The notes under the pieces were generated by a model. It saw nothing but the letters and a program-made list of their open reading frames with translations. It did no database searches and had not been told where the DNA came from. 35,176 nucleotides of DNA from Candidatus Methylomirabilis sp. (GTDB taxonomy: Bacteria; Methylomirabilota; Methylomirabilia; Methylomirabilales; Methylomirabilaceae), in the NCBI GenBank assembly GCA_041498975.1, contig JBGQJI010000006.1, positions 1-35,176 on the forward strand, written 5' to 3'. This document shows, piece by piece, positions 8,197 to 35,176 of the stretch (position 1 is its first letter; the number at the start of each line of letters is the position of its first letter). A program made the translations under genes and the position numbers.

Positions 8197-10730
<2,534 letters not shown>

Positions 10731-22187: not shown

Positions 22188-22378
22188 AGTTATACTTTTG
22201 ACTAATACGATGAGCCAAAAAAACAGCCCGACAGCCAAAGAGCGCCACCACGCTCTGAAGCGGCCCAGACGCGCCGGAATGCTCCAGCCCTTGGCCCAGA
22301 ACCTGCCAGCCACCGCAAGCCGCACGCAGGACCGGCATACCCAGGGCATGATAACCATCATCCTGAAGCCGCATAACG
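22188..22378 (-). promoter_or_regulatory. ~190-bp repeated promoter module copy 1, upstream of polB2
   Basis: About 90% identical by hand alignment to 24123-24316; minus strand reads T-tract, TGGCTC-17-TATAAC with TATTAGTCA 4 bp before the -10. Confidence 0.8.
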
Positions 22379-22449
22379 TTGCCGTTCACTCGGCCGAGGG
22401 GCGGCGCGGAGCGCCGCTCCCGAGGATCGGGTGCAACGGCTTGTTATGT
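22371..22449 (-). other. attC site
   Basis: Minus strand: ACATAAC-AAGCC-GTTGCACC...AGTGAAC-GGCAAC-GTTATGC with GC-rich central hairpin. Confidence 0.88.
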
Positions 22450-22635
22450 GTCTGATTCACGATCCTGGAGGTGCTTCTTAAGTTGGTCAATGTCAAGAGC
22501 CGGCCGTGTGCTGTGGATCATGGCGTGGCAGTTCGGGCAAACCGGAACTAGATCATTCACCGGGTCCACTACGTACACACCTTTGATTTCGGACAATGGC
22601 ACAAGGTGGTGGACGTGGATGTAGTTCTTCCCATA
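22444..22635 (-). pseudogene. C-terminal remnant of an HNH endonuclease (McrA-like)
   Basis: Translated by hand: YGKNYIHVHHLVPLSEIKGVYVVDPVNDLVPVCPNCHAMIHSTRPALDIDQLKKHLQDRESDT*, with the stop inside attC R''; no start codon. Confidence 0.8.
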
Positions 22636-23018
22636 GAGAATGGAAACGGCGAAAAAAACATGAAAACTGCTACAGCAGCGAACGCGATGACGATACTTGT
22701 GACTGGTAATACGAGTGGCGTATCTACAATCGACTTACCGATATAAAGAAGCAGAAACCATAAAATGGGATGCCCATCATATTGGGTCAGTCCGTAAAGG
22801 TCTAGCGGTGAAATGGCAGCGCGTGCTAACGATAATGCCCGAACTTCGTCACGCCCGAATTCATGCCGTGTCGTAGTGAAGATGACTCCAGTGAGCCATA
22901 TGCCAAGAATGGCGACTGTGACGATTGCAGACTTTGCTCCGGCGGACGAGGTATTAGATCGGGCCAGTGCTAGACACCGTCCCACAAAAGCTTTTGGTGA
23001 TATCGTCAAGCGGTTCAT
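22636..23018 (-). pseudogene. N-terminal remnant of a polytopic membrane protein (GT-C-like), first cassette after attI
   Basis: TM helix then HEFGRDE...YDGHPILWFLLL; lower GC; fused out of frame to the HNH remnant. Confidence 0.55.
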
Positions 23019-23056
23019 CGTTATTTCAGAATAATCTGGCCAATAGAGTATCGAGC

Positions 23057-23142
23057 GGCTAACTATTGATGCTGAAGCATTTCCCGGTCCTCACATTTCC
23101 CACGACTGCGGCGATTCTCTCGGGTTTTCGAAACCTTGTCAA
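23057..23142 (-). promoter_or_regulatory. Candidate Pc promoter and attI crossover downstream of intI
   Basis: Minus strand TTGACA (23137-23142)-17 bp-GAGAAT (23114-23119), then GTTAGCC at 23057-23063 ~40 bp ahead of the cassette ORF, with no attC hairpin. Confidence 0.5.
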
Positions 23143-23192
23143 GGTTCTCCGGGCCCCGCCATGGCCGATAAATACTGACCAGCATAATCCCA

Positions 23193-23579
23193 TTATGGCT
23201 GCAGCGAATTGGGCGCCACGGTCGATGCGTCTGCCGGACTACGGACGCCTCTCCCACCCCGATTCACAACATGGGTGTAAATCATGGTCGTGGTGACACC
23301 CCCGTGACCCAAGAGCTCTTGGACGGTCTGGATGTCATAGCCATCCTCGAGCAGGTCAGTGGTAAAGGTATGCCGCAATGTGTGGCGGCTCGCTGGTTTC
23401 ACAATCCCGGCCTTGAGCCTAACCTCTTTCATCGCCCGCTGGAGAACCGATTCGTGTGGGTGGTGACGGCGCCTTTTTCGCGCGAGCCGGTCGGTGTAGT
23501 GGTGTGAGGCTGGAAAGACCCACTGTCATCCCCATTCTTTGCCTGCGTTTGGATATTTGCGTTCACGGGCATTGGGCAG
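23193..23579 (-). pseudogene. intI: Integron integrase remnant (C-terminal part, internal stop)
   Basis: LPNARERKYPNAGKEWG*QWVFPAS...[15 protein letters not shown] (IntI-specific insertion), [29 protein letters not shown]-terminus missing. Confidence 0.92.
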
Positions 23580-23594
23580 GCTTACGCGGCCGAA

Positions 23595-23645
23595 ATAGAC
23601 GTCAAACAGCCAGCCCGTCTGCGCGCGCAACTTTCTGCTCCAGGA
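23595..23645 (-). repeat. 51-bp direct repeat copy 2 (vestigial polB start overlapping the small gene's end)
   Basis: Encodes LRAQTGWLFDVY, against LRAQKGWLFDVY at the polB start. Confidence 0.9.
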
Positions 23646-23871
23646 CTTTGAGTTCCTTCTTCAGCTCGATCAGCATGCAGAGCAGCATCGTCTCGAAGGG
23701 CTTGGGATTGCTGGCATAGGCGCCGGCCTGCATCTGGGTCTTCGGCGCGATGAAGAGCTCGTCGAAGACCTCCTGGTCGTCTTTGCGCAGCGCCCGCCGA
23801 AACCGCTTCCACTCGTCCTTCTCGAGCTCCTGCAGGATCAGCATGTTATAGGTCGGCAGCGTCCTCCCCAT
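23602..23871 (-). CDS. Small helical protein of the PolB2-associated family (arCOG07300-like)
   Basis: MGRTLPTY...EWKRFRRALRKDDQEVFDELF...NPKPFETMLLCMLIE; RBS GAGAGG. Confidence 0.8.
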   Translation of the reverse strand: MGRTLPTYNMLILQELEKDEWKRFRRALRKDDQEVFDELFIAPKTQMQAGAYASNPKPFETMLLCMLIELKKELKVLEQKVARADGLAV

Positions 23872-23909
23872 GGTTTACACCTCTCTCCCGTACGCACTCA
23901 CTAATGTGA

Positions 23910-24093
23910 TGTCATTGCGAGGCCGACAAGGTCGGCTGAAGCAATCTCGCGACTCGGGGCAGGCTGCGCAATCTACCCGCCCAACGGATCACAGGCGAGA
24001 TTGCTTCGCTTCGCTCGCAATGACACCGCGTGTCGGATTGCCGCGCTCCCTTCGACGAGGCTCGGGGCAGGCCTTCCAGTCGCTCGCAATGAC
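23910..24093. repeat. Cluster of GTCATTGCGAG/CTCGCAATGAC REP-like palindromes
   Basis: GTCATTGCGAG..GAAGCAATCT...AGATTGCTTCG..CTCGCAATGAC and a further copy; related units at ~22150 and ~30197. Confidence 0.75.
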
Positions 24094-24122
24094 GATGTCG
24101 CGACATGCAATGTGTTTGCGAT

Positions 24123-24316
24123 AGTTATACTGTTGACTAATACCATGAGCCAAAAAAAGGGCTCGAAGGCCAAAGCGCGCCACCACGCTCTGAAGCGGCT
24201 CAGAGGCGCCGGAATGTTCCAGCCCTTGGCCCAGAGAACCTGCCAGCCACCGCAAGCAGCACGCAGAACCGGCATACTCAGGGCATGATACCCATCATCC
24301 CTGAAGCCGCGTAACG
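24123..24316 (-). promoter_or_regulatory. ~190-bp repeated promoter module copy 2, upstream of the small gene
   Basis: Direct repeat of 22188-22378; TATTAGTCA-4 bp-TATAAC. Confidence 0.8.
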
Positions 24317-24345
24317 CGATGCCGCTCAGCGACGGCCCGTTAGGC
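24309..24345 (-). other. Internally deleted attC-like site
   Basis: Minus strand GCCTAAC-GGGCC-GT..GCTGAGC-GGCATCGC-GTTACGC; R'' matches the DUF418 cassette start (TAGGCAG). Confidence 0.6.
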
Positions 24346-24439
24346 AGCGTCTTCTCGCGAGTCTTCCTGCCGCCTCGGCATCCTGAATAGCTGGCAGGGC
24401 AGCGCGACCTTAAGCGGACCGCGAGATAGCCCCAAGTCT

Positions 24440-25735
24440 TCAGACGACGGCTGCCGGCCCGCTTGAGCCGCTCGATTGTGCGAGCCGCATCGGCTGGAAC
24501 CGGGCGTAGGTCAGTGTCCGCCACAGCCACTCGACCGGTCCGAAGCGGAAGCGACCGAGCCACCAGCGGCTCCAGACGATCTCCGCGCCGAAAAGCGCCA
24601 GCGTGAACAGGATCCCGATGGCAGATCCGAATTTCTGGTAGAGACCCAACCCGTAACCAAAAAAGACCGATGCGCAGAGGAACCACTGCATGAGGTAGTT
24701 GGTGAGCGCCATTCGCCCCGGCCAAGCCAGCAGGCCCAGTCTTGTTCTCCATCGCCGGCTCTGCGCCATGAGGAGAAGCATCGCGGAGGCATAGCCCAAA
24801 CTGACCGCAAAGCCGCCGACAAGCACCAGAGAGCGCTGGAGGATCCAGCCGGCTGGAGGCGCGACTTCCTCGACCGACAGCATCACAAAGAGGGTTCTCC
24901 CGACCAAACCGATTGCGAAACCCGACCAGAGCACTCGCCGGAGGAACGGCAGATGGGCCGATGTGCTGTCGAAGATTCCGCGGTGAACGGCATAGAGCCC
25001 GATCAAGAACATCGTGAACACGTTGGCGAGCTCGGCTGCATAGAAGTTCCAACCCGAGAAGGTCGCCACGAATTTGTCCCACCGAAGGCCGACAAGCTCC
25101 GTGTAGCTGCCCGTTCTTTCTATCCGACGAGCGCGCCGCACACGCTCCCGGCGCGCCTCAGTCTCGTCGCGCTCCAGCGCACGCACCGTCTCTGCGTCGG
25201 CACCCTGGAGCAAAGCGGCTTGGCGCGTCTCGACGAGGTGGCGCGTCACGCCCGGCGCCGTCGACGCAACGACGAGGCTCAGGGCGGCGCAGATAAGTAT
25301 CGTCCTCGTGGACCGGTGCCGAAAGAGCATCAACGGGTAGCCCATGAGTGCGTAACGAATCAGGATCGGCCGATCCATGATGAAGAATTGCTGCATGACG
25401 CCAATACCCAGCAGCACGCCGAGTCGGCGCGCGTAGATCGGAATGAACGGCGCGCCGCGCGCGCGGGCGCGAGACACCTGGATGGCAAAGCCGACCCCGA
25501 ACAAAAGCGAAAACAGCGGATAGAACTTGTTTGTGGCGAAGAGCTCGATCAGCCAGAGCGCCGTCCTGTCGGCACTCGAATGACGGCCAAGAAAGGCATT
25601 CATGTCGACGAGGATGATTCCGAAGAGCGCGAAACCGCGCAGGATATCCACCGTCTCGATCCGCTCGCCTGGCTCAACGGGCGCAAGCTCGCCTCGGCAT
25701 GACAACTCCCCTGCGACTCCGCTGGTAGTGCACAT
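24440..25735 (-). CDS. DUF418 (YeiB-like) membrane protein, gene cassette
   Basis: RIETVDILRGFALFGI, KFYPLFSLLFGVGF, GRMALTNYLMQ, FRFGPVEWLWR. Confidence 0.9.
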   Translation of the reverse strand: MCTTSGVAGELSCRGELAPVEPGERIETVDILRGFALFGIILVDMNAFLGRHSSADRTALWLIELFATNKFYPLFSLLFGVGFAIQVSRARARGAPFIPIYARRLGVLLGIGVMQQFFIMDRPILIRYALMGYPLMLFRHRSTRTILICAALSLVVASTAPGVTRHLVETRQAALLQGADAETVRALERDETEARRERVRRARRIERTGSYTELVGLRWDKFVATFSGWNFYAAELANVFTMFLIGLYAVHRGIFDSTSAHLPFLRRVLWSGFAIGLVGRTLFVMLSVEEVAPPAGWILQRSLVLVGGFAVSLGYASAMLLLMAQSRRWRTRLGLLAWPGRMALTNYLMQWFLCASVFFGYGLGLYQKFGSAIGILFTLALFGAEIVWSRWWLGRFRFGPVEWLWRTLTYARFQPMRLAQSSGSSGPAAVV

Positions 25736-25819
25736 TTATCTATCCTCTCCGTGCACGGTTTCGGGAATGACGGACTCGGATCCCCCGCAGCGGGTGTGAC
25801 TGCGCTCTGATCGACCTCT

Positions 25820-25909
25820 GCCTAGCTTGGCGCTGAGCGGCCGCCGGCCGAGCACGCCCGGAAAAGACGAGCCGCTTCTCCGCCGGTCCGCTCCAGCGCC
25901 TGGTTGGGT
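25820..25909 (-). other. attC site (R' mutated GTT>GCT)
   Basis: ACCCAAC-CAGGC-GCTGGAGC...GCTCAGC-GCCAA-GCTAGGC. Confidence 0.8.
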
Positions 25910-25913
25910 TGCG

Positions 25914-26201
25914 CTATTTCTCCTCGCCCGGCTGCGGCGTGTCTCGGTTGAGCCTCTTCTGATTCTCGGCAGCCCACTCCGCCTGCGCCCGTTCCGTTCG
26001 CTCGATGATCTCCTGGCACTTCTCCGCCGTCAGGGACATTTCGCTGCACCGTTGCTGGTATGCAGGGTCGTTCGGGCGCTTGCAGCAGAAATACTCCGGC
26101 AAGGGCAAGAACGCCGTGCTGCTTGCCGGGACGGCGACCACAGCGAGCGCCGCCATGGCCGCGACGAAACGCACCGTGAGACAGTAAAGTCTCGAACGCA
26201 T
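25914..26201 (-). CDS. Small secreted Cys-containing hypothetical protein, gene cassette
   Basis: RBS GAAGGAGG, signal peptide, CC...C...C; lies between two attC sites. Confidence 0.7.
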   Translation of the reverse strand: MRSRLYCLTVRFVAAMAALAVVAVPASSTAFLPLPEYFCCKRPNDPAYQQRCSEMSLTAEKCQEIIERTERAQAEWAAENQKRLNRDTPQPGEEK

Positions 26202-26317
26202 CAGGGCACCTCCTTCCCCGTTGGGGCCACGCTGAATGCGAGCGTCGTCGGCGAGTAGCTCCGGCGAGGCCCTTGCGCTGCACTCATGTGTGCAGCACGC
26301 TGACCCCGTCAAGCGCA

Positions 26318-26380
26318 ACCTAACGTGTGCCGTTAACGGGCGCCCGCTTCCGGGCGTCCCGGTTGAACAACCGGTTAGAG
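26318..26380 (-). other. attC site
   Basis: CTCTAAC-CGGTT-GTTCAACC...GTTAAC-GGCACAC-GTTAGGT. Confidence 0.88.
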
Positions 26381-26381
26381 C

Positions 26382-26702
26382 TCATGATGCACCTTGATTC
26401 CCACCCATACGTAGCCGGGAATAGACCACATACCGAATTATGCCGCCGACGAGAAGACAAGCCGGGAATATCACCAGTGAGTAGATTGCTGACACCACGA
26501 GCCACCACGCCGAATCGGGACCGGATGCCATCTCTTTGCGCAAATAAATGGTAGTCACAATGGACAATGCTACAGCGCATCCGACAACAAGAGCATCAAA
26601 TATGCGGATGCTCTTAGCTCCATCTCTGCCAGGGCGGAAGCGAAAATACACCCAGAGTGACACGCCCAGAACTGGAAGGAGGATTGCAAACGCAACAATC
26701 AT
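26382..26702 (-). CDS. Small 3-TM hypothetical protein, gene cassette
   Basis: ATG just after GTTAGAGCTCAG; the cassette start GTTAGAG complements its own R'' CTCTAAC. Confidence 0.75.
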   Translation of the reverse strand: MIVAFAILLPVLGVSLWVYFRFRPGRDGAKSIRIFDALVVGCAVALSIVTTIYLRKEMASGPDSAWWLVVSAIYSLVIFPACLLVGGIIRYVVYSRLRMGGNQGAS

Positions 26703-26707
26703 CTGAG

Positions 26708-26772
26708 CTCTAACGTTCCGCAACAGTTGCAGGTCGCGAAAGCGGACGGCCGCCTGCGTACGGCTGTTAGGC
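26708..26772 (-). other. attC site (imperfect)
   Basis: GCCTAAC...GCAGG...CCTGCAAC...GTTAGAG. Confidence 0.7.
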
Positions 26773-26787
26773 GGCCGTCGGAGCGGC

Positions 26788-27240
26788 TCAAAGCCAACGC
26801 CTGACCTTGCTCTTGTAGTCACGGTATGCATCGCCGAAGATTCGCTCCAGTGTTTTCTCTTCATGAGGGATAAAGACGATACTCAGGACGATGAAGAAAG
26901 CGATTGGTGCAAGAAACATAGGTAGCGAACCAACCCAGACGGCAACTCCAGTCAGCATGAGGATGATTCCTAAATACATCGGATTTCGCGAGAAACGGAA
27001 CGGACCGTCGGCGACTAAAGTACTCGGCTCGTCCGTGGGACGAATAGGTGTTTTCTTCTCCTGGAACAGCTTCCACGCCCAGATCATGACCGCAAATCCT
27101 GCAATAATGCCTATTGAACCCAAGAGCGGCATGGAAAAACGACGCCCGATGTTTTCAGGTACAAGCAGATGAAGGCCGAAACTCACAGCAAGAAGGGCAA
27201 AGGCGATGCTAGGCGGTTTCAGTTCTACAAGGTTCATCAT
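26788..27240 (-). CDS. Isoprenylcysteine carboxyl methyltransferase/PEMT family protein, gene cassette
   Basis: LVADGPFRFSRNPMYLG, IPHEEKTLERIFGDAYRDYKSKVRRWL. Confidence 0.9.
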   Translation of the reverse strand: MMNLVELKPPSIAFALLAVSFGLHLLVPENIGRRFSMPLLGSIGIIAGFAVMIWAWKLFQEKKTPIRPTDEPSTLVADGPFRFSRNPMYLGIILMLTGVAVWVGSLPMFLAPIAFFIVLSIVFIPHEEKTLERIFGDAYRDYKSKVRRWL

Positions 27241-27254
27241 TGGCAGGCCAATTC

Positions 27255-27312
27255 GCCTAAGGCTACGCTTCAGCCGCGCGGGTACCGCGTCGGCTGCAAG
27301 CGCTTGTTCGGC
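27255..27312 (-). other. attC site (R' mutated GTT>CTT)
   Basis: GCCGAAC-AAGCG-CTTGCAGC...GCTGAAG-CGTAGC-CTTAGGC. Confidence 0.85.
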
Positions 27313-27483
27313 TTACCTGTTTCTTTGTTCATCGATATGCCTCAACTCGGAAAGCACCCCATGGCCCGCGTAGAACAAATTAGTTGGGCATTTGTCATAT
27401 TCATCCCTGCATCCGACGGCATCACATGCGATAGCCGAAAAAGGGTGATACCGAATCATAAACCCCCTGAAGCTCATCCTTCG

Positions 27484-28892: not shown

Positions 28893-29567
28893 CTAATCCT
28901 TGCTTGTAGAGCTTCTCCTGAATGTATTCCTGAGCGGGACTCCTGCACCTGGGAACGTGTCGGCCGCCCTGACCGGCTTTTCCAAGTAGAGCGTGGAGGC
29001 GTCCAGCTTGATCACTTTATCGGCCATGGCCATCAAGACGTCCAGCAGCCTGTCCCGGTCGGGCAGTCGCACGGCCGGAGCGGGGCAAACCACCAGCACG
29101 AGCGAGCCGGCATCGGCGAGCGCGCGCAGATGGGCCGTCGCTTTCCTGAAAACCCTCCAGGCCTCCCGAAGCTCGACGTCTTCATCGTAGAGATTGTCCA
29201 GAAAGCCAGAGGCGACCAGGATCCGGGAGGCGTAGGTCTTCAAGGCTTGGGAGATGCGCTCGGTGATGAGGGCTTCGAGTTGATGAACGGTGAAGGTCCG
29301 CGAGATATGGATGCGGTCGAGCAGCTCTTCGGGTGGCCTGTTAAGTCGTGTCGCAACCTCAGCGATCAGAAAGGGATTGAAGGCGTTGGCAGAGTCGATG
29401 AAGACGACGTGCTGTCCGGAGGCCAGCAGCGAGGCGATCGCCCGCAGCGAATAGGTGAGGACGGCCTGGCTGCCGTAGAGCAGGACGAGGCCGCCCTGAG
29501 CCCTCCAGCGGTTGAGGGAAAGGGTGAATTGGGAAAAGACAAGCCTGGGAGGCAGTACGCGTTCCAC
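28893..29567 (-). CDS. RecA/RadA-like protein with degenerate Walker A (ImuA-like role inferred)
   Basis: LVLLYGSQAV at the P-loop position (no GKT), VVFIDSANAFNP, LLDRIHISRTFTVHQL; starts 2 nt after the lexA stop. Confidence 0.82.
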   Translation of the reverse strand: MERVLPPRLVFSQFTLSLNRWRAQGGLVLLYGSQAVLTYSLRAIASLLASGQHVVFIDSANAFNPFLIAEVATRLNRPPEELLDRIHISRTFTVHQLEALITERISQALKTYASRILVASGFLDNLYDEDVELREAWRVFRKATAHLRALADAGSLVLVVCPAPAVRLPDRDRLLDVLMAMADKVIKLDASTLYLEKPVRAADTFPGAGVPLRNTFRRSSTSKD

Positions 29568-29569
29568 GA

Positions 29570-30163
29570 TTAAATCCTGCGAAAGACACCGATGACCTTC
29601 CCTAAGATCCTGAAGCGCTTGTCTTTCCCGATCCTGATGGGCGTGAAGTCCTCATTTTCAGGCTTGAGGATCACCGTCTTGCCGTCCATCTGGAAGCGCT
29701 TCACCGTGACCTCGTCATCGACCATCGCCACCACGATCTCGCCGGGGAGCGCTTCACGCTGCACCTTCACGAGCACGAGGTCGCCATCGAAGATGCGGGC
29801 GTCCCGCATGCTGTCACCCTGAACCCTCAGCAGGAAGGTCTCCCCGCCTCCGGTCCACTCCCGGGGGAGCGGGTAACTGGTCTCGATGTTCTCCTCGGAC
29901 AAGACCGGTTTGCCGGCGGCCACCTGACCGAGCAGCGGCGCCAGGGCAACCCGCTGTTCCTGACGCAGCTCGATGGCCCGCGACCGCTTGCGCCCGCGCG
30001 TGAGATACCCGGCCCGCTCGAGACGCTCAAGATGGTACTGGACCCCCCGGAGGTAGATCTTCAGATGCTGGGCGATTTCGCGCAGCGTCGGGGACGCGCC
30101 GTGCCTGGCCTTATAGTCAGCAATAAACTTGAGGATCTGCCGCTGCCGCTCCGTCAGTTCCAT
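29570..30163 (-). CDS. lexA: LexA repressor
   Basis: LTERQRQIL, PTLREIA, VAAG cleavage site, GDSM (Ser), VTVKR (Lys), ILGKVIG. Confidence 0.96.
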   Translation of the reverse strand: MELTERQRQILKFIADYKARHGASPTLREIAQHLKIYLRGVQYHLERLERAGYLTRGRKRSRAIELRQEQRVALAPLLGQVAAGKPVLSEENIETSYPLPREWTGGGETFLLRVQGDSMRDARIFDGDLVLVKVQREALPGEIVVAMVDDEVTVKRFQMDGKTVILKPENEDFTPIRIGKDKRFRILGKVIGVFRRI

Positions 30164-30262
30164 CGGATCCTCTTACCTCCATTCCCTCTTCACGCTGTCA
30201 TTGCGAGCCGCGGGCGCGGCAATCTCGCTCTTTGCCCCATTACGGAAGCGCCTACTACCAAT

Positions 30263-30291
30263 ATTATACATATGACTAATAAGTCAAGCAA
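30263..30291 (-). promoter_or_regulatory. lexA promoter with palindromic operator (candidate LexA box)
   Basis: Minus strand TTGCTT-17 bp-TATAAT; the spacer carries TGACT-tatt-AGTCA (30273-30286). Confidence 0.78.
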
Positions 30292-30313
30292 AAAAAACTT
30301 CATCGAGATTCGC

Positions 30314-30391
30314 ATCTAACGGCAAGCTTCACCGGCAGCAAGCAAGCGCTGCGCCGCTTGCCTGCTGTCCGAGTGGAAGCGAACGTTGGGG
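30314..30391 (-). other. attC site
   Basis: CCCCAAC-GTTCG-CTTCCACT...GGTGAAG-CTTGCC-GTTAGAT. Confidence 0.88.
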
Positions 30392-30467
30392 TGTCATCCT
30401 GGGCACTCGCGTCCGAGACCGACGAAGACCGAATAGCACCAAGAGACCGATCGCTATCGCACTGACG

Positions 30468-30773
30468 TTACCGTGCCCTAATAATCACCGCGCTGATTCG
30501 GTCGATACTGACAAAGGCATCAAAAAAATCCCTCTTTGAAAGTTTCGAGATATGAACCAGATTGTCACCGACCATGGTCACCGTCCCTTCCAGTTCCTCA
30601 CTGGACTCCAGCCGCAACACCACCCGTTTGCCGATAGAATCCGTCAGGAGGGCCTTCATCGTTGCCGCAGGCTTCAGCTCGTACTTGACCTCTTCCGCCG
30701 ACGCGATCGGGGCGGAAATCACCATGAGCCCCACCAGAAGCATGACGGCAGGCACAATTCTTTTCACCTTCAT
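30468..30773 (-). CDS. Secreted hypothetical protein with small beta-barrel (Sm-like) pattern
   Basis: RBS GAGGAGG, signal peptide ASA-E, IGKRVVLRLESSEELEGTV. Confidence 0.8.
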   Translation of the reverse strand: MKVKRIVPAVMLLVGLMVISAPIASAEEVKYELKPAATMKALLTDSIGKRVVLRLESSEELEGTVTMVGDNLVHISKLSKRDFFDAFVSIDRISAVIIRAR

Positions 30774-31085
30774 GACCTTAACCTCCTCGTGATAGGTTGT
30801 TGATATAGGGTCAGGGCTGCTAGTGGCTCATGTGTGGAGAAGTGCTTGGATACGCACATCGCCATCGCACGTGCCTCGTTCCGCCGGCCCCGCGGATACC
30901 GCGCGGCGTGTAGAGGCCGCCTCCCTTGCTCGCCATGCACGACGTCATGCAGTCGGCCCACGCCGGCCCGATCGACGCGAGCGCGAGCCATACCGCAATC
31001 GACGCGCCAAGAAGAAGCGGACCGCGTGTCATGAATGCCCCCGTGCTGCCTGTGCGAAAGCGCCTGGTGTCGATCATGCCACGCC

Positions 31086-31173
31086 GGCTAACGTGAGGCT
31101 CCGCGGCGGGCCAGCATGGTGGTTGATGATAGCACGATGCTTGTGGCCCGTCCGTAACAGCTAGAGGTTAGGC
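31086..31173 (-). other. attC site
   Basis: GCCTAAC-CTCTA-GCTGTTAC...GCGGAGC-CTCAC-GTTAGCC. Confidence 0.75.
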
Positions 31174-31182
31174 TACGACGCT

Positions 31183-31569
31183 TCACCGCTCACCACCATA
31201 CACCGGGTTTGGACCCCAGTAGCGCGCCTTCGCCGCTTTGATGAAGAACGCTAGGGCGGCCAGAAGAGCCATACCGGCGCCGATTGGTAAACCAAAGGCC
31301 GCGAATGCGAGAAACATTTGATGCTGCACGATGGCGGGAAAGAAATGCACCGCACTATAAAACAGGAGAAAGAGAAACGCGACCTGGCCAAGCCAGTCGA
31401 GCGAGTAGAACGCCCAGCGAAGTTGATATGTGGCCCATGACTCGCCCTCCCGCGGCACTGGCCCAAGCCACGAAAAGGCGAATCGAGTAACAGCGCTTCG
31501 CGGAAAGAGGCCGAGCAGCCAGATGGCCGTATAGAGCGCAACGTAGAAGACGACGATCCGCTGCTCCAT
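31183..31569 (-). CDS. Hypothetical membrane protein, gene cassette
   Basis: MEQRIVV..., three hydrophobic segments; bounded by attC sites. Confidence 0.7.
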   Translation of the reverse strand: MEQRIVVFYVALYTAIWLLGLFPRSAVTRFAFSWLGPVPREGESWATYQLRWAFYSLDWLGQVAFLFLLFYSAVHFFPAIVQHQMFLAFAAFGLPIGAGMALLAALAFFIKAAKARYWGPNPVYGGER

Positions 31570-31575
31570 CCCGCC

Positions 31576-31653
31576 ATCTAACGTCGCCATTGAGCGGCCG
31601 AGCGGGCGGGCGAAGCCCGCTCCCGAAGGTCCGTCTCGAATGGCTTATTAGCG
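31576..31653 (-). other. attC site (R'' AAC>AAT)
   Basis: CGCTAAT-AAGCC-ATTCGAG...GCTCAAT-GGCGAC-GTTAGAT. Confidence 0.82.
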
Positions 31654-31678
31654 CACATTTGGGTACGGCGGCCAGTCG

Positions 31679-32716
31679 CTAGAGATCGGCGGCCAATTGT
31701 CGCGTCAGCTCGGCGGCCGGCACCTCCTTGCACCCGCTCGCATTCTGGCCAGACCACAGAGGCGAGAAATTACCGGAGCCTTGGCTTTCGGCTTTGGCGC
31801 GTAAGGGGGCGATGGCAGCAGTGGCTAAGGGAAAAGCGGGCGGAGCGGGGCTGATCGGGCCAAGCTCTTTCATGATGCGGTTCACAATTCCGCGGGCGGG
31901 TCGGCCCGTGAAAAGGTTCGTGAGCGCCGTGTGGCGGGCGGCCTCGCTCTTGAGCGCCGCGCGATGCACAGGGCTCGTGGTGGCCTCGGGGCAGAGGAGA
32001 TAAGCCGTCCCGATCTGTACGCCGGCTGCGCCGAGCGCCATAGCAGCCGCAACGCCTTTCGCATCGCCAATGCCGCCGGCGGCAATGACCGGGAGCTTTA
32101 CCTTTTGCACGATTTGCGGCACCAGTGCTAACGTGCCAACTTGAGTACTCAGGTCTTCCGACAAGAACATCCCGCGATGGCCGCCCGCCTCTAATCCCTG
32201 GGCGATGATCGCATCGACCCCATGTGCTTCGAGCCAACGAGCCTCTTCGAGAGTGGTTGCCGAAGACAGTATCTTCGAGCCCCAGGCTCTCACCCGCGCC
32301 AGCAATTCGGCCGATGGCAAGCCGAAATGAAAGCTCACTACGGCGGGCTTGAATTCGCTGAACACCTCCGCGGCTTCGGAATTGAAGGGCGCACGCCCCG
32401 GCCCGACGGGAACGATGTCTGCATCGATTCCGAACTCTTCGTAATACGGCGACAGCGTAGCTCGCCAAACCGCTTCGCGCTCGGCATTGGGGGTGGGCGG
32501 CACGTGGCAAAAGAAGTTCACGTTGAAAGGCCTGTCGGTTTGCGCCTTGATCGTCGCCAGTTCATGGCGCATGGCCTCAAGACCAAGCATGGCGCAGGGC
32601 AATGACCCGAGCCCGCCCGCGTTCGACACCGCGACGGCCAGTGCGCTGCCTTGCACACCCGCCATGGGTGCTTGAACGATCGGTAGCTCTAGGCCCAGAA
32701 GTTGTTGCAGGGTCAT
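31679..32716 (-). CDS. Nitronate monooxygenase family flavoprotein, gene cassette
   Basis: PIVQAPMAG, AGGLGSL, NVNFF, SFHFG, QGLEAGGHRG, IAAGGI, LWSGQ. Confidence 0.93.
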   Translation of the reverse strand: MTLQQLLGLELPIVQAPMAGVQGSALAVAVSNAGGLGSLPCAMLGLEAMRHELATIKAQTDRPFNVNFFCHVPPTPNAEREAVWRATLSPYYEEFGIDADIVPVGPGRAPFNSEAAEVFSEFKPAVVSFHFGLPSAELLARVRAWGSKILSSATTLEEARWLEAHGVDAIIAQGLEAGGHRGMFLSEDLSTQVGTLALVPQIVQKVKLPVIAAGGIGDAKGVAAAMALGAAGVQIGTAYLLCPEATTSPVHRAALKSEAARHTALTNLFTGRPARGIVNRIMKELGPISPAPPAFPLATAAIAPLRAKAESQGSGNFSPLWSGQNASGCKEVPAAELTRQLAADL

Positions 32717-32801
32717 CACTTGAACTCGGCCTTGTTTCACACTTGCCGCACTTTCTTTCCGATACTTTGCTGAACCAAGAGCCCCTTCGTAGGGCCCCGC
32801 G

Positions 32802-32867
32802 CGCGAACGCACTGCCGGTCAGCGGCGGCCGGCGCAGCCGCCCGGCCGTTGCACCAGCGGGTCAGAA
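32802..32867 (-). other. Degenerate attC site
   Basis: TTCTGAC-CCGCT-GGTGCAAC...GCTGACC-GGCAGTGC-GTTCGCG. Confidence 0.6.
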
Positions 32868-32883
32868 AGCAGCATGTCAACAA

Positions 32884-33309
32884 TCATGACACCGTGGTTC
32901 GCCGCAGACCCCTGAGGACCAGGAGAGAAGAGGCAACTCTTATTATCCCGACGCTCATGAAGCCGAACGTCACGACGCCTTCCTACCAGGGCTGAATGCT
33001 GTGGCCTGCTGCTGTGATCGGGGATAGGGCTGCCGTACCGAAGATCGCCGCCAGTGTGGTCACTGCCCAATTTGCGTACGTGCCATAAAGCGCACCCCAG
33101 TACGCCGCAACCTTCAACCGCGGAGACAGCCTCACCTCCGTCCAGACGGCACCCAACGCAACGAGGAAGGTTCCGTTCATCACACCTTCCAGGTGTGCAG
33201 CGAGCCCCATGCGCGGATTATTGAACTTCTGCTCAACGAAGCCCGTGAGGAGACCGAGCAAGAACAAGAACATTCCGTGCCAGAGCAACCGACGCTTGGA
33301 GTCTTCCAC
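32884..33309 (-). pseudogene. StyC-like membrane protein interrupted by an in-frame TAG
   Basis: WHGMFLFLLGLLTG...AAHLEGVMNG; after TAG (32983-32985) the frame continues with a fourth TM helix EGVVTFGFMSVGII...LLVLRGLRRTTVS*. Confidence 0.7.
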
Positions 33310-33352
33310 ACTTGTCTCCTCTCTCTAATTCACGATGGGGCCTTCTTGGACC

Positions 33353-33510
33353 GGCTAACGGCTGGCGTCTCAGCGGCGAGCGGACGCGCGAGCAAACTCG
33401 CGTGGACGACCGGCCGTTGCAGCCGCGTGCTGGCCGGCGCAAAGCGTCCGCGCCATCGGGAGTTTCAGCGGCGCCCGGCATCGGGTGTCCGCTGCACACT
33501 ATTATTCGGC
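33353..33510 (-). other. Two tandem degenerate attC sites (33353-33435, 33451-33510)
   Basis: GGCCAGC...GTTAGCC and GCCGAAT-AATAG-TGTGCAGC...GCTGAAA-CTCCC-GATGGCG, ~15 bp apart. Confidence 0.6.
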
Positions 33511-33514
33511 ATGC

Positions 33515-33733
33515 TCATGAGGCCCACTTCAGTCTCAGTCTCCTGTGGTTCAAAGCACAGTCCCTTAGGTATAGGTTGATGAGGTTCTGATAGGGCATAC
33601 CCAGTTCCTTAGCCAGAGCCTTGAAGTAGGCCACTGTCGCTTTATCCAGACGAATCGTTATGGGCTGCTTCATGTTCCTGATGTAAGGGTTCTTCTCACC
33701 CTTCATCTTCCCAAAATCGTAATGATTTCTCAT
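33515..33733 (-). CDS. brnA: BrnA-family antitoxin
   Basis: MRNHYDF...NPY...ITIRLD..TVAYFK..A...GMPYQNLINLYL; RBS GGAGG. Confidence 0.88.
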   Translation of the reverse strand: MRNHYDFGKMKGEKNPYIRNMKQPITIRLDKATVAYFKALAKELGMPYQNLINLYLRDCALNHRRLRLKWAS

Positions 33734-33735
33734 GG

Positions 33736-34029
33736 CTACCTCCAGCATTTCCAGTAATCCGATGTTTCCTTCTTGTTCGCTTTCCGAGCAGAGATGATCC
33801 TTATCACGGAATCGCTCATCCGATAGCAATGACACACAACCAGAACCCGAAGTTTGAAGCTGATACCCAGCATCAGAAAGCGGTCCTCGTCGGTCGAATG
33901 ATCCGGGTCAAGGTACCGGATGGCGTTCTCGTCAAGGAAGACGGTTTGAGCCTCTTCGAAGGATACCCCGTGCTTCCGCTTGTTCTCACGGTTCTTTGCC
34001 TCATTCCACTGGAAGCGTATGTCACTCAT
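33736..34029 (-). CDS. brnT: BrnT-family ribonuclease toxin
   Basis: FQWNEAKNRENKRKHGVSFEEAQTVF, DHSTDEDRF, IRIISARKA. Confidence 0.92.
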   Translation of the reverse strand: MSDIRFQWNEAKNRENKRKHGVSFEEAQTVFLDENAIRYLDPDHSTDEDRFLMLGISFKLRVLVVCHCYRMSDSVIRIISARKANKKETSDYWKCWR

Positions 34030-34030
34030 A

Positions 34031-34063
34031 TGTACACTGTACGTATTTTTACGAGAGAGTCAA
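34031..34063 (-). promoter_or_regulatory. brnTA promoter with palindromic operator
   Basis: TTGACT-16 bp-TACAGT; GTACA-G-TGTAC palindrome over the -10; ATG 6 nt downstream (leaderless). Confidence 0.65.
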
Positions 34064-34075
34064 GTGATTTCTTGG

Positions 34076-34140
34076 GCCGAGCGGGGCTGCGGATCAGCGG
34101 CGGGCGGACGCCCGAACTCGCGTGCGTGGACGCCTGCTCG
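34076..34140 (-). other. Half attC site (R'/L' side only)
   Basis: Plus strand GCCGAGC-GGGGCTGCGGATCAGCGGCGGGCGGACG resembles the site at 33353; the partner half is absent. Confidence 0.5.
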
Positions 34141-34189
34141 AAAAACATGTGCGAATTGAAGGTGCCGCCGCTAGACTAACGCGATGGCG

Positions 34190-34238
34190 GTAACCCATGT
34201 CCCCGGACTTTTTTGTTACCTATCTCCCCGACTGCTCA
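34190..34238 (+). mobile_element. Remnant end of an IS481-family-like element
   Basis: Tandem GTAACCCATGTCCCC / GTTACCTATCTCCCC sub-repeats ending GACTGCTCA; no transposase in the window. Confidence 0.5.
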
Positions 34239-34261
34239 ATGACGATCGCGACATGGCGCCC

Positions 34262-34702
34262 TCACTTTAGGCTCCCAGCGCGCAGCGCCCGGTGGGCACC
34301 AATGATCATGAGCGCGCCACCGACTAATGCCGCCAACGCACCGACCGTGTTGCTGGCGAATACAACCCAGTTGAGGGCGGGACCAGAGCGTTGGAGTCCG
34401 CGCACGCCTGCAACGGGCGCTATCAAAAGAGCGAGTACGAATGCGTAGGCGGACATCACGACGGACCACGCCAGAACTGAAGCCGTCCGGTCTCCGAGTG
34501 CCAGACGCGGTAGTGCGGCTCCGGTTGCGATCAACCAGATTCCTACTCCGGCGAGACCGACGTGCGCAAGACGCCAGGCGCGCACAGCCTCACCACCCCA
34601 GGCATCGATCACCGCAGCAGCGAAGGGGAATCCGCACAGCAATCCGACGAACAGCACGATCGCACCATGAAAGAGGATCTGTAAGCCGGCTCGCTGGGTC
34701 AT
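34262..34702 (-). CDS. StyC-like 4-TM membrane protein, gene cassette
   Basis: FHGAIVLFVGLLCG...AWRLAHVGLAGVGIWLIA...LPRL...RGL, similar by recall to styrene oxide isomerase motifs. Confidence 0.65.
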   Translation of the reverse strand: MTQRAGLQILFHGAIVLFVGLLCGFPFAAAVIDAWGGEAVRAWRLAHVGLAGVGIWLIATGAALPRLALGDRTASVLAWSVVMSAYAFVLALLIAPVAGVRGLQRSGPALNWVVFASNTVGALAALVGGALMIIGAHRALRAGSLK

Positions 34703-34735
34703 TCCAAGCTCCTGCGAAGCGTGCCTCCATCACCC

Positions 34736-34838
34736 GCTTAACAACCAAGTTCACCCGCGGCGCTGCCGCACAGCGGACCCTTGAAGCCAGAACAAAAGGT
34801 CGGGCGGCAGCGACGTCGGGTGGAACGCCTGGTTGGGC
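34736..34838 (-). other. attC site
   Basis: GCCCAAC-CAGGC-GTTCCACC...GGTGAAC-TTGGTT-GTTAAGC. Confidence 0.9.
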
Positions 34839-34876
34839 GTCTCTCAGCGGTCCCTTTTGAGGCACGCATTTCGGCC

Positions 34877-35176
34877 CTACTCTCGAGTTTTGCGCGACGG
34901 CGTCACTGCCGCTATCGCGCTCCAGGCTGCGTGCCAATGATTGCGGCGAGTGTAGAAATATGTCGCCATGAGAAAGTCATATGTGACGCAAAAGAAGCCG
35001 TAGGCTAATGGCAGGGGTGTGGTCTGCCGAGGGCCCAATAGAGAGCCGCCAGCATGAGCGTTGAACTCGTGGACCGCGTCCCATAGGCCATGTAGCAGGT
35101 ATCCGGCTATGAGAGCAAATGGAACTCGGATTCCCACTAGGCCAAAAACAGCAAACACTGCCACTGCCGTCGCTTC
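34877..35176 (-). CDS. Membrane protein, gene cassette (5' end beyond window)
   Basis: GYLLHGLWDAVHE...P.AYGFFCVTYD; stop just before attC. Confidence 0.7.
   Translation of the reverse strand, partial: EATAVAVFAVFGLVGIRVPFALIAGYLLHGLWDAVHEFNAHAGGSLLGPRQTTPLPLAYGFFCVTYDFLMATYFYTRRNHWHAAWSAIAAVTPSRKTRE

Follow-up and report, generated by a model that had tools for sequence, protein, structure and literature searches.

How a DNA-damage repair operon came to be interleaved with integron cassettes is the question raised by positions 22371-35176 of the window, that is, of the whole stretch of DNA analyzed (35,176 nt). The window is one complete contig of a metagenome-assembled genome (MAG; 84.9% complete, 2.68 Mb) and ends inside the cassette array. 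An initial annotation had proposed either that cassettes were inserted repeatedly at GTT sites upstream of SOS promoters or that the repair genes were themselves captured and shuffled as promoter-bearing cassettes; its observation was partly confirmed and its interpretation partly supported. The region probably represents what is left of a chromosomal integron of the inverted type, nested within a LexA-controlled PolB2 mutasome operon. In such integrons, intI and the cassettes are read in the same direction. The operon, lexA-iRadA-PPB2-polB2, belongs to a Methylomirabilis-like bacterium.

A mutasome operon in three pieces

The "SOS repair operon" of the initial annotation proved to be the PolB2 mutasome operon, which the available part of its published description gives for bacteria as iRadA-PPB2-PolB2 with lexA nearby (PMC11791011). 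Among 80 related loci, the upstream side was visible in 68; PPB2 lies within 600 nt directly ahead of polB2 in 59 of these, and lexA, iRadA, PPB2 and polB2 form an unbroken row in 29. In the window, the operon is split into three transcription units by some 13 attC-bounded units, every one of them on the minus strand. Each transcription unit is headed by a promoter with an identical operator. The first, P(lexA)-lexA-iRadA, has five cassette units behind it. In the second, P2-PPB2 leads to a polB2 fragment of 12 codons that continues in frame into the final third of intI; behind it come an attI-like junction and a single cassette. The third is P2-polB2. The breakpoints coincide with attC cores. 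Base composition follows this mosaic, with a G+C content of 0.545-0.574 in cassette stretches vs 0.62-0.63 in lexA-iRadA and polB2.

P(lexA) (30263..30291, minus strand) consists of a -35 element TTGCTT (30291-30286), a 17-nt spacer and a -10 element TATAAT, with the operator TTAGTCATATGTATAA at 30279-30264. The -35 element starts 22 nt past the end of an attC site (30314), in agreement with the distance of roughly 23 bp first noted. lexA (29570..30163, minus strand; 197 aa; TIGR00498 207 bits, above cut-off; Pfam LexA_DNA_bind and Peptidase_S24) is the sole copy found in the genome. The gene originally read as RecA-like is iRadA (28893..29567, minus strand; Pfam Rad51, E 2.3e-5), the inactive RadA/Rad51-like subunit of the mutasome, whose position is conserved in at least 46 loci and whose family is named in the part of the source available (PMC11791011). 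hyd250 (28014-28766, minus strand; weak alpha/beta-hydrolase match) and orf143 (27484-27915, minus strand) are part of the operon in no relative.

The P2 module occurs in two copies that are 90% identical, A (22186..22377; operator 22205-22190) and B (24123..24315; operator 24140-24125), both on the minus strand. Promoter modules had been said to start at the GTT of the attC sites at 22371 and 24309. Both modules do begin at the GTTA cores of these sites, but the latter is a truncated relic, and the promoter and operator proper lie about 150 nt inside the module rather than at the GTT. In each of five copies (window A and B, sister genome G004, and metagenome contigs L123 and L126) the homology of P2 sets in exactly at a GTTA core, and that core belongs to a different attC every time, a signature of IntI recombination between G and TT at a fixed array boundary. 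Copy B precedes PPB2 (23602..23871, minus strand; 89 aa), the "small gene" of the initial annotation, which starts with MGRT, a motif named in the available part of PMC11791011. Downstream of copy A come REP-like hairpins (22055-22185), a PPB2 remnant made up of its final ~15 nt, and full-length polB2 (19757..22039, minus strand; 760 aa; Pfam DNA_pol_B, E 1e-33; NF004416 391 bits, below cut-off; 3011 homologues).

The 16-bp operator TTAGTC-N4-GTATAA has exactly three copies in the 2.68-Mb genome, all at this locus. The operator core is also present ahead of lexA in G012 and of imuA in G004, G007, G008 and G011, and in other phyla 6-N4-6 palindromes occupy the equivalent place in lexA promoters of the PolB2 mutasome operon. 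Because all three promoters share the operator, joint LexA-dependent induction is expected: LexA cleavage after DNA damage would induce the three mutasome subunits together despite their physical split. recA of the window genome lacks the operator, so this LexA may control mutasome genes only. Since no convincing terminator was predicted, read-through from P(lexA) into the downstream cassettes is plausible, and cassettes behind P(lexA) and P2 may be co-induced in this way.

The attC array

Inspection by eye picked out 13 candidate attC sites and one fragment, all of minus-strand polarity and lying within 22371-34838. A home-made covariance model (R1), trained on five of them (A, E, G, K and M) and run on the window with filters off, recovered five held-out sites (H, J, I, C and F), all full length and on the minus strand. 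Thus, 10 of 14 sites pass (five by construction), eight of them with E <= 0.012; site C, at E 0.1, and site F, at E 0.39, are marginal, and the 22 kb of the window beyond the array gave a best match of E 0.17. The count and polarity originally given for 14 sites stand, while B, D, L and the fragment are missed by R1; three or four of the 14, including that at 24309, are degenerate.

Reading from the contig end along the minus strand, on which all sites lie, attC A (34736..34838; training site, 57.6 bits, supported by its fold) is 3' of a DUF6010 ORF (34877-35176) that the end of the contig truncates. The weak site B (34174..34221), 3' of orf146 (34262-34702), is repeated in many contexts in the reads (loose ends at 34190 and 34238). 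A BrnT/BrnA toxin-antitoxin cassette (33515-34029; Pfam), with its own promoter predicted by promoter scan at 34063-34036, precedes attC C (33353..33435). orf108 (32983-33309) precedes the weak site D (32802..32855), which like C is of "type 2"; its 3' half is common to L and C (repeat family D10) and its fold has a z of 0.21. attC E (31576..31654; training, 74.9 bits) lies 3' of a nitronate-monooxygenase-like ORF (31679-32812; Pfam NMO), attC F (31086..31173), with perfect ends GCCTAAC and GTTAGCC, 3' of orf135 (31183-31590), and attC G (30314..30391; training, 75.7 bits), the final site ahead of the lexA promoter, 3' of orf85 and a DUF6897 ORF (30468-31077).

Downstream of lexA-iRadA, attC H (27255..27312; E 1.2e-6) has an R' core decayed to CTTAGGC. 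It is followed by attC I (26708..26772; E 0.012), 3' of a PEMT/ICMT-like ORF (26788-27240; Pfam), attC J (26318..26381; E 1.1e-5), 3' of orf160 (26382-26864), and attC K (25819..25909; training, 67.4 bits), 3' of orf134 (25914-26318) and with R' decayed to GCTAGGC. The 37-nt relic L (24309..24345), 3' of a DUF418 ORF (24440-25735), retains the R'' box and 3' half, the latter aligning with a well-folded attC of G004 (L104:1732-1792; z -3.2). The array's last site, attC M (22371..22449; training, 81.8 bits), is also a strict rule-based match and ends a decayed cassette (22450..23018) containing orf149 and a C-terminal HNH fragment.

Could these hairpins instead be genus-specific REP or terminator elements in an ordinary accessory-gene island? 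The genome is indeed rich in REP-like hairpins of the TGTCATTGCGAG...GAAGCAATCT type (around 22055-22185, 23910-24122, 15300-15530 and 18620-19830; summed contig depth up to 850), and initial rule-based scans did not separate the attC-like sites from background. The sites nevertheless belong to another family, with RYYYAAC/GTTRRRY ends and a conserved bulged L box, the single-base bulge lying on the 5' arm. Scores on the plus strand are far lower generally (for M, 22.3 vs 81.8 bits), and the window sites come after stops of minus-strand ORFs. A search of the whole 2.68-Mb genome gave a single additional match (C7:30334-30391). In relatives' sequences outside the training set, R1 found about 25 independent sites, including 11 matches within 10 kb ahead of P2-polB2 in L123 and others in L126, L118, L122, G004, L031 and L107; most lie -7 to +42 nt from same-strand ORF stops. 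Across 36 aligned matches, 88.2% of cells are paired vs 67.8% after shuffling (none of 500 shuffles reached 88.2%) and compensatory changes occur at every one of the 16 pairs; values for slid controls are 17-44%. This alignment had been fitted to the model and so favors pairing. Together with rearrangement breakpoints exactly at GTT and the association of attC sites with an intact IntI in G041 and with IntI relics in the window, these features make a non-integron origin hardly credible.

Integrase relic and assembly

An integron-integrase relic (23226..23594, minus strand) covers profile positions 192-314 of 315 and has an in-frame TGA at 23528-23526. Its best family is TIGR02249 (161.5 bits; a 100-aa part scores 130.7 bits vs 70 for XerD), and over 122 aa it shares 60% identity with the intact IntI of G041 (465 bits, above cut-off), 950 nt downstream of which lies an attC in the same orientation. 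Upstream, a duplicated polB2 5' end (23595..23630, minus strand; repeat D9) is fused to the relic in frame, so that the translated chimeric ORF joins polB2 codons 1-12 to IntI residues ~226-347; in G004 the corresponding in-frame fusion joins codons 1-25 to ~289-348. Further duplication traces are repeats D1, D2 and D15. Downstream of the relic are a Pc-like promoter predicted by promoter scan (23142-23114, minus strand) and an attI-like core CATCAATAG/TTA (23071-23060, minus strand). The stretch past the IntI stop is conserved in four loci (window, G000:C218, G004 and G041-L107) up to ACTCAATAG/TTR, and the sequences diverge beyond the GTT. With its integrase dead, the array is formally a CALIN (an attC cluster lacking an integrase) accompanied by an intI pseudogene. 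No intact intI was found in the MAG, which is 84.9% complete and in which the contig breaks off before the array does; the array would therefore be frozen unless IntI were supplied in trans.

Misassembly could in principle mimic such a layout, whether at the P2 modules, which are repeated, at REP elements or at attC sites; the window is a whole MAG contig that ends within the array. P2 and REPs are repeats at which public unitigs break, and three stretches (24002-24170, 22186-22390 and 30296-30654), as well as the junction between attC G and P(lexA), are unbridged among the public contigs listed. At the junctions that could be checked, a 4927-nt public contig covers 24281-29207 (iRadA to P2 copy B) with 0 mismatches, a 2908-nt contig covers 24170-27077, and contigs of 556-823 nt cover PPB2, the polB2 fragment and the IntI relic. 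Furthermore, there is 10% divergence between the P2 copies, G004 independently carries the order PPB2-polB2'::'intI-cassettes-attC-P2-polB2 on one contig with different cassettes, and L123, L126, L118 and L122 show an attC array followed by P2-polB2. A chimera is accordingly very improbable.

Origin of the nested arrangement

An intact operon might have repeatedly received single cassettes at chance GTT sites just upstream of promoters through an integrase whose gene lay elsewhere, the arrays being enlarged afterwards by attC x attC recombination. Such insertion is one possible origin of CALINs given in the available part of PMC4889954, and it would suit the interval between iRadA and hyd250, where neither attC nor attI is visible. 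Accessory genes separate PPB2 from polB2 by 8.8 kb in L050 and by 5.5 kb in L060, both delta-proteobacterial loci, and neither attC nor IntI was seen there, so operon gaps tolerate insertions generally. G012 holds a different two-gene insert in the same gap between iRadA and PPB2; that insert, however, begins at an attI-like core directly past iRadA (L101:14809-14820), which argues for a resident attI rather than a chance GTT. Chance insertion also leaves unexplained the IntI relic with its conserved attI-like junction, the polB2 5' duplicate fused to intI, and the very existence of P2, since canonical operons of other Methylomirabilales (L017 and L034) lack such a gap. It is judged unlikely, and the relic, junction and duplicate, which were overlooked when stray GTT insertions were first proposed, point instead to a resident co-oriented integron and segmental duplication. 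Shuffling by IntI of two large promoter-bearing cassettes, P(lexA)-lexA-iRadA to attC H and P2-PPB2 to attC M, into a pre-existing array would fit the attC cores that formally bound both blocks (30314 to 27255, 3.06 kb; 24309 to 22371, 1.94 kb) and the toxin-antitoxin cassettes with their own promoters in the array. In addition, one contig from run X4 diverges at 30315, within the GTTAGAT core of attC G, joining this site to sequence absent from the window genome in place of P(lexA). That variant is a single contig, the lexA block was seen in no second context, and its G+C content (0.62) is at the core genome level, unlike that of the cassettes; lexA of G012 is not flanked by attC, none being found upstream. 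Capture of polB2 as a cassette is unlikely because R1 finds no attC 3' of it and the chromosomal flank on its downstream side (DUF4412, DUF72) recurs in 10 of 15 metagenome relatives. Mobile blocks thus seem highly improbable.

For the resident integron, one tentative scenario, given somewhat less than even probability, begins with an ancestral order intI-attI-cassettes-P2-PPB2-polB2. A tandem duplication reaching from inside intI to inside polB2 would create the single new junction polB2'::'intI, after which redundant copies (the second PPB2, the first polB2 and both integrases) would be lost and cassettes turned over. Cassette content is wholly different among relatives whose PolB2 is 81-90% identical. 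The polB2'::'intI junctions of the window and G004 differ, so two events or later deletions are needed. intI sequences follow a complete polB2 in two Thermodesulfobacteriota/delta loci (as relics) and PPB2 in G041; the ancestral position of intI is thus not fixed, which counts against the scenario. Seven cassette units upstream of lexA lie outside its reach. Also weighing against the nested-integron reading are the unbridged junction of attC G with P(lexA) and the lack of an attC ahead of lexA in G012.

No description of integron cassettes interleaved with a PolB2 mutasome operon was found in the literature. Both components of the locus, the integron and the PolB2 mutasome operon, are already known.

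Identity and dissection of the PolB2 operon

What the initial annotation called an SOS repair operon is the published bacterial PolB2 mutasome operon. The polB2 gene (19757-22039) gives a Pfam DNA_pol_B match, its relatives are the bacterial group with iRadA and PPB2, and its product is 81% identical to a protein assigned by NCBI to Candidatus Methylomirabilis limnetica. LexA scores 207 bits against TIGR00498, above the cut-off, combines LexA DNA-binding and S24 peptidase features, and shows VAAGKP, GDSM and VKRF in translation, in keeping with an Ala-Gly cleavage site and a Ser/Lys dyad. PPB2, previously noted only as a small gene (23602-23871), has 89 codons and begins MGRTLPTY; the Rad51/RadA matches of the RecA-like gene, the putative iRadA, fall below cut-off. 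In the published operon, the order iRadA-PPB2-PolB2 is fixed, iRadA is an inactive RadA homologue, PPB2 is a small helical protein with an MGRT motif, lexA is enriched nearby, and some bacterial examples are "interspersed with other genes" (Timinskas, Timinskas and Venclovas, 2025, PMC11791011). The order is retained in the window though interrupted, with 5.0 kb between iRadA and PPB2 and 1.6 kb between PPB2 and full-length polB2.

Gene order was surveyed in the best 80 polB2 loci from species genomes, the upstream side being visible in 68. PPB2 lies at most 600 nt before polB2 in 59 of these, is farther off in three (L050, L060 and L002, the locus of relative G004) and was not found in six, three of them from Methylomirabilota. 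Relatives with an uninterrupted operon, which the initial annotation had proposed to look for, were recovered: the full lexA-iRadA-PPB2-polB2 row is contiguous in 29 of the 68 loci. In the delta-proteobacterial loci L050 (1187-10001) and L060 (4448-9992), accessory genes in a single orientation fill 8.8 and 5.5 kb between PPB2 and polB2, including DNA methylases, a Ser/Thr kinase, HEAT-repeat proteins, GyrI-like and ASCH proteins and toxin-antitoxin pairs. These inserts were considered as integrons and are not claimed as such, no IntI or attC having been seen there; the PPB2-polB2 gap looks like a general insertion hotspot. Some PolB2 homologues (P0090, P0114) are about 1290 residues long and contain intein/LAGLIDADG-type Pfam domains (PF14528, PF14890, PF14527).

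The window is one entire contig, C6, of a metagenome-assembled genome from a Methylomirabilis-like bacterium (NC10 phylum); this genome totals 2.68 Mb over 241 contigs, with a completeness of 84.9%. The genes at positions 1-19,700 of the window are those of an ordinary chromosome (clpX, bamD-like, ksgA, pyruvate kinase, enolase, glutamate dehydrogenase, a tRNA and DUF72 genes), and the interleaved locus, from 22,039 upward, is confined to the minus strand. Read in minus-strand order from 34838, seven cassette units end at candidate attC sites A, (B), C, (D), E, F and G (30391-30314). P(lexA) starts 22 nt past G, in agreement with the roughly 23 bp annotated initially, and is followed by lexA, iRadA, hyd250, orf143 and attC H; hyd250 and orf143 are absent from this place in relatives and have no attC in front. 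Four cassettes ending at I, J, K and the relic L (24345-24309) come next. From the GTTA of L runs a 190-nt promoter module, P2 (copy B, 24123-24315), leading through REP-like hairpins to PPB2 and codons 1-12 of polB2. These codons continue in frame into an integron-integrase relic (23594-23226) that corresponds to the last 123 positions of the profile. Beyond this fusion lie a promoter-like site, an attI-like core, a decayed cassette (orf149 and an HNH tail) and attC M (22449-22371). A second P2 module (copy A, 22186-22377; 90% identical) starts at the GTTA of M and leads through further REP-like hairpins and about 15 nt of the PPB2 end to complete polB2. The initial description of both promoter modules as beginning at an attC GTT was accurate, L being a truncated attC relic. 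The cassette stretches have a G+C content of 0.545-0.574, against 0.62-0.63 for lexA-iRadA and polB2.

The REP-like hairpins belong to a family of the form TGTCATTGCGAG...GAAGCAATCT and GCCTGYCCTGAG...GTCGAAGGG, present at 22055-22185, 23910-24122 and 15300-15530, and are unlike the attC sites. Further along, a 148-nt inverted repeat (18619-18766 and 19683-19830; 98% complementary), its arms composed of REP-like sequence, flanks a DUF4412 gene (18791-19660). One arm covers the last ~25 codons of polB2, and the same peptide tail is encoded on the opposite strand at 18621-18689; PolB2 is 760 aa long in the window and 733-746 aa in close relatives. The 3' end of polB2 seems to have been overwritten by the repeat, and the DUF4412 segment could be invertible.

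The attC array, integrase relic and attI-like junction

The attC candidates, 13 and one fragment read on the minus strand, were evaluated with a home-made covariance model (R1), trained on an alignment of five clear sites (A, E, G, K, M) with a hand-drawn structure in which a 7-bp R box is combined with an L box made up of 6 bp, a single bulged base and a further 3 bp. With filters off, R1 also recovered five sites on which it had not been trained, H (E 1.2e-6), J (1.1e-5), I (0.012), C (0.1) and F (0.39), all at full length and on the minus strand; the top match in the 22 kb beyond the array had an E value of 0.17. The 14 attC-like sites of minus polarity reported initially are thus matched in number, and ten of them pass this home-made model, five as held-out sites, but B, D and L gave no R1 match in the window search with filters off, and D and L folded no better than shuffled sequences (z 0.21 and 0.51). 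The GTT cores of H and K are mutated, and L is without its left arm. In an alignment of 36 R1 matches, fitted to R1 itself and so biased toward pairing, 88.2% of cells pair versus 67.8% after shuffling (none of 500 shuffles as high), all 16 attC pairs show changes on both sides, and sliding the partner by 1-3 columns reduced pairing to 17-44%. The consensus termini, GCCTAAC...GTTAGGC, match the attC core ends RYYYAAC/GTTRRRY. It was concluded that the candidates represent a genuine attC array, with eight sites well supported, two marginal and three to four decayed.

Other approaches were discarded. A scan for AAC...GTT pairing and folding energy gave no fewer matches outside the array than inside it, the G+C-rich background not being separable, and a strict rule (R box, 5-6 bp, one bulge, 3 bp) picked up M and E alone and was too brittle, so the covariance model was used instead. 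An Rfam search of the window returned a tRNA (15633-15706) alone, Rfam being without an attC family. A stretch at 34089-34160, upstream of the BrnT promoter, shares 77% identity with the interior of attC C (33365-33408) but has no GTT core, and is probably a broken attC.

The ORFs of all 13 units are on the minus strand, and a same-strand ORF stop lies -7 to +42 nt from most sites. The units are mostly single-ORF, promoterless cassettes, the promoter-bearing exceptions being BrnTA and the three operon pieces. The widest spacing between supported sites, 3.0 kb from G to H, is within the limit of <4 kb for a CALIN (a cluster of attC sites lacking an integrase), which comprises at least two attC on one strand. 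Elsewhere in the genome, R1 found a single extra site, on contig C7. Among 1.15 Mb of polB2 loci from many phyla it gave eight matches at E <= 1, five of them in Methylomirabilota (L002, L031). The metagenome contig L123 has 11 sites within 10 kb upstream of polB2, and further matches occur in L126 (two), L118 (two), L122 (one), G004 (two), L031 (three) and L107 (three), the last extracted from G041, a more distant NC10 genome.

The integrase relic (23594-23226, minus strand) is the genome's best match to TIGR02249, at 161.5 bits against a cut-off of 265; it covers profile positions 192-314 and carries one in-frame TGA. A 100-residue part scores 130.7 bits with TIGR02249 and 70 bits with XerD, and over 122 residues the relic is 60% identical to the intact IntI of G041 (465 bits, above cut-off). 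Its ...ERKYPNA..W.WQWVFP stretch we take to be part of the IntI-specific insertion. A second IntI relic is found on contig C218, and no TIGR02249 match over cut-off occurs in the window's own genome (84.9% complete), G004 or G002. Because the window contains an intI relic only, the region is classed as a CALIN or decayed integron rather than a complete integron. In G041 the intact integrase and its attC are co-oriented, with one R1 match 950 nt downstream of the integrase. These integrons are therefore of the 'inverted type', in which intI reads the same way as the cassettes, and the co-orientation of the relic is normal for the clade.

About 170 nt past the integrase stop are conserved in four loci (the window, C218, G004 and L107 of G041) and end with ACTCAATAG followed by TTR, beyond which every sequence diverges. 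This should be how an attI with differing first cassettes looks, although we know of no experimental attI for this clade. The attI core pattern, with two mismatches allowed, is not enriched in the window (two matches versus 1.16 expected). Within the conserved stretch lies a promoter-like site, TTGACA-17-GAGAAT, which is kept in C218.

Shared putative operator, assembly support and related loci

The genome contains three copies of the pattern TATTAGTCANNNRTATA and no more, each lying between or overlapping the -35 and -10 elements of one of the promoters P(lexA), P2-B and P2-A. Its core, TTAGTC-N4-GTATAA, is an imperfect 6-N4-6 palindrome that also precedes lexA in relative G012 and imuA of the classical imuA-imuB-dnaE2 cassette, a LexA target, in G004, G007, G008 and G011. 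In other phyla, lexA promoters of the PolB2 operon have clade-typical palindromes in the same place, such as CTATAC-N4-GTATAG and GAAC-N4-GTTC. We infer that the motif is the LexA operator of this genus and governs the mutasome genes; with the same operator on all three pieces, the split operon is predicted to have stayed co-regulated. The motif is absent before this genome's recA and from the rest of the genome, so that a broad SOS regulon is not supported. No convincing intrinsic terminator was predicted from lexA to L, and read-through from P(lexA) into the five cassette units is possible. In relatives lacking PolB2 (L113, L115, L117 and L114, G008:C1:1097259-1100299), lexA is followed by a DUF5131 (Gp37/Gp68-like) gene, a promoter bearing this same operator and imuA-imuB. 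The LexA box of the genus seems to serve two alternative mutasomes, and G004 has both.

Four public sediment runs, one possibly the source sample, were compared over 19500-35176 as Logan contigs; no RNA run was found to contain this stretch. The concern that the arrangement might be an assembly chimera at the repeats is answered in part. A 4927-nt contig with no mismatches spans 24281-29207, starting in iRadA, crossing all five cassette units and L and ending in P2-B. A second contig, of 2908 nt, spans 24170-27077, and others of 556-823 nt cover 23180-24002, where the IntI relic, the polB2 fragment and PPB2 lie together with the REP region. None of the listed contigs bridges the P2 copies, the REPs or 30296-30654, and these parts are uninformative either way. 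One contig of run X4 departs at 30315, inside the GTTAGAT core of G, and continues with 255 letters absent from this genome, and one of run X3 departs at 22446, the R'' end of M; these single contigs hint at cassette-level variation at exactly these boundaries. A 30-letter X4 loose end that replaces P(lexA) has no match in the window or genome. Summed contig depth in the bin 23684-24206 is 144-850, compared with ~15-30 elsewhere.

In G004, whose PolB2 is 84% identical, PPB2 is followed on a single contig by a chimeric reading frame that joins polB2 codons 1-25 to IntI ~289-348. The attI-like core comes next, and after it two cassettes unlike those of the window, an attC, the P2 module and polB2. 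In G012 (81% identical) the attI-like core lies immediately past the iRadA stop (L101:14809-14820), before a methyltransferase gene, an epimerase-like gene, a P2 promoter with the same operator and intact, overlapping PPB2-polB2. An attC-like stretch before this P2 (L101:17058-17160) folds like shuffled sequence (z 0.36), has no R1 match and was not counted. Another G012 locus, L108 (G012:C37:1-12000), has an IntI pseudogene on the plus strand (648-1516; TIGR02249 275 bits, one TAA inside) and minus-strand R1 matches at 1994-2067 and 2590-2647, an arrangement convergent with IntI and neither canonical nor inverted. Five metagenome contigs (PolB2 81-90% identical) show attC sites and then P2-polB2 with PPB2 absent; L120 has intact PPB2-polB2. 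The full P2 module is present in both window copies, G004 and L123 and is shortened in L126; its homology begins at GTTA in every copy, the preceding attC body differs each time, and the P2-bearing relatives have no cassette content in common. DUF4412 and DUF72 genes follow polB2, as in the window, in all loci reaching that far (10 of 15 metagenome-relative loci), which makes polB2 the fixed distal boundary of an array that otherwise varies. In L131 polB2 is only a 64-residue fragment (5321-5512) adjoining DUF4412, with a nitronate-monooxygenase homologue upstream that is 42% identical to a window cassette gene; this looks like polymerase loss at the array edge.

More distant loci vary the arrangement. 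In G041, a 4.8-kb insert separates iRadA from PPB2, beyond which lie four other genes, an IntI relic, the attI-like core and three attC matches; polB2 is 86 kb away on the opposite strand, directly behind three attC sites. A complete polB2 is accompanied by an IntI pseudogene, 0.05-1.1 kb behind it and on its strand, in L022 (Thermodesulfobacteriota) and in L029 (a delta-proteobacterium); in L022 two R1 matches follow the pseudogene, each right after an ORF stop. In both pseudogenes (L029:13177-13479 and L022:2619-2850) the N-terminal ~45 residues are joined to the C-terminal ~50, and that of L029 is an open 100-codon frame; this could reflect an old shared deletion or a retained mini-protein.

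Origin and relation to known systems

The locus shows GTT junctions with varying partners, a resident IntI relic with its attI-like site, and one new direct-orientation junction of polB2 5' to intI 3'. A tandem duplication leaves exactly one such junction, which favors an ancestor of the order intI-attI-cassettes-P2-PPB2-polB2; G012 resembles this state minus intI. Duplication of the segment from inside intI to inside polB2 would have produced the window layout, followed by loss of redundant copies and turnover of cassettes. This scenario is tentative and falls somewhat short of an even chance, because the junctions of the window and G004 differ, the seven units upstream of lexA are unexplained, and the relic is placed differently in G041 and two other phyla. 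For single steps, the two routes proposed initially, insertion of cassettes at secondary sites or capture of operon pieces as cassettes, are possible.

A further reading is that the association is not an accident of decay but an ancestral functional coupling, in which an inverted-type integron was built into or directly behind the LexA-controlled PolB2 operon in several phyla, its integrase transcribed with the error-prone polymerase and its cassette row expressed from LexA-operator promoters. Hints of this are the same-strand IntI relics just after polB2 (L022, L029) and after PPB2 (G041), the attC matches behind the relic in L022, and the attI-like core right after iRadA in G012. We consider such coupling unlikely; if it is real, a single damage signal would induce point mutagenesis, the shuffling of cassettes and the expression of those in store, all at once.

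Bacteria under stress have two classic ways of gaining new traits, integrons and SOS mutagenesis, and to our knowledge these have so far been linked only via LexA boxes at integrase promoters. Guerin et al. reportedly described such LexA control in 2009, and Boucher et al. are said to have described 'inverted-integrase' integrons in 2007 from environmental phyla such as Treponema. The window shares with these systems the link between integron and SOS response and an intI co-oriented with its cassettes, as shown for the intact IntI of G041. The link here, however, is physical nesting in a LexA-controlled operon rather than a LexA box at PintI, and no LexA box was seen before the window's intI relic. 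About 13 cassettes and an integrase relic with its putative insertion site lie inside a mutagenic polymerase operon predicted to be damage-induced; the operon probably survived cutting because one and the same promoter, likely under repressor control, heads every piece. The locus may serve as an example of integrase-mediated recombination and segmental duplication remodelling a core operon, and hints that PolB2 operons, perhaps SOS polymerase operons generally, are preferred integron homes in uncultured phyla. Literature searches gave nothing relevant linking PolB2 or translesion operons with integrons or attC arrays, and the phrase pair 'PolB2' and 'integron' had no match.

In comparison with the published PolB2 operon, the window has the same three genes in the same order, the MGRT start and an adjacent lexA. 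It differs in that its interspersed genes are integron cassettes with attC, that it has three promoters, and that the polB2 5' end and the P2 module are duplicated; the word 'integron' is absent from that article (PMC11791011). CALINs, some with intI pseudogenes, are known, a pseudogene lying within 10 kb of 15 of 279 CALINs (Cury et al., 2016, PMC4889954). Like CALINs, the window has two or more attC in the same orientation, each behind an ORF that has no known function and in most cases no promoter, a toxin-antitoxin cassette, no functional intI nearby and an intI pseudogene within 10 kb. Unlike them, its array runs through a conserved operon with operon pieces between cassettes, its intI relic has been joined to a second copy of part of the adjacent polymerase gene, and its units are headed by LexA-operator promoters instead of a single Pc (PMC4889954). 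The same study names expression of such cassettes as an open question, for which the window offers a natural case.

The nearest published parallel found is the insertion of integron-like elements (ILEs) site-specifically into rulB, the translesion-polymerase gene of the Pseudomonas rulAB operon (Rhodes et al., 2014, PMC4542609). In both cases, an element of the tyrosine-recombinase type splits the polymerase gene of a damage-tolerance operon, and a conserved integrase side contrasts with a variable cargo side. ILEs, however, have three Xer/phage-type recombinases, a 3-bp direct repeat and neither attC cassettes nor IntI, whereas the window has a true IntI-family relic, attC sites and a ~0.7 kb duplication (PMC4542609). 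The components, integron remains and a PolB2 operon, are already known, and their interleaving appears to be a new variant.
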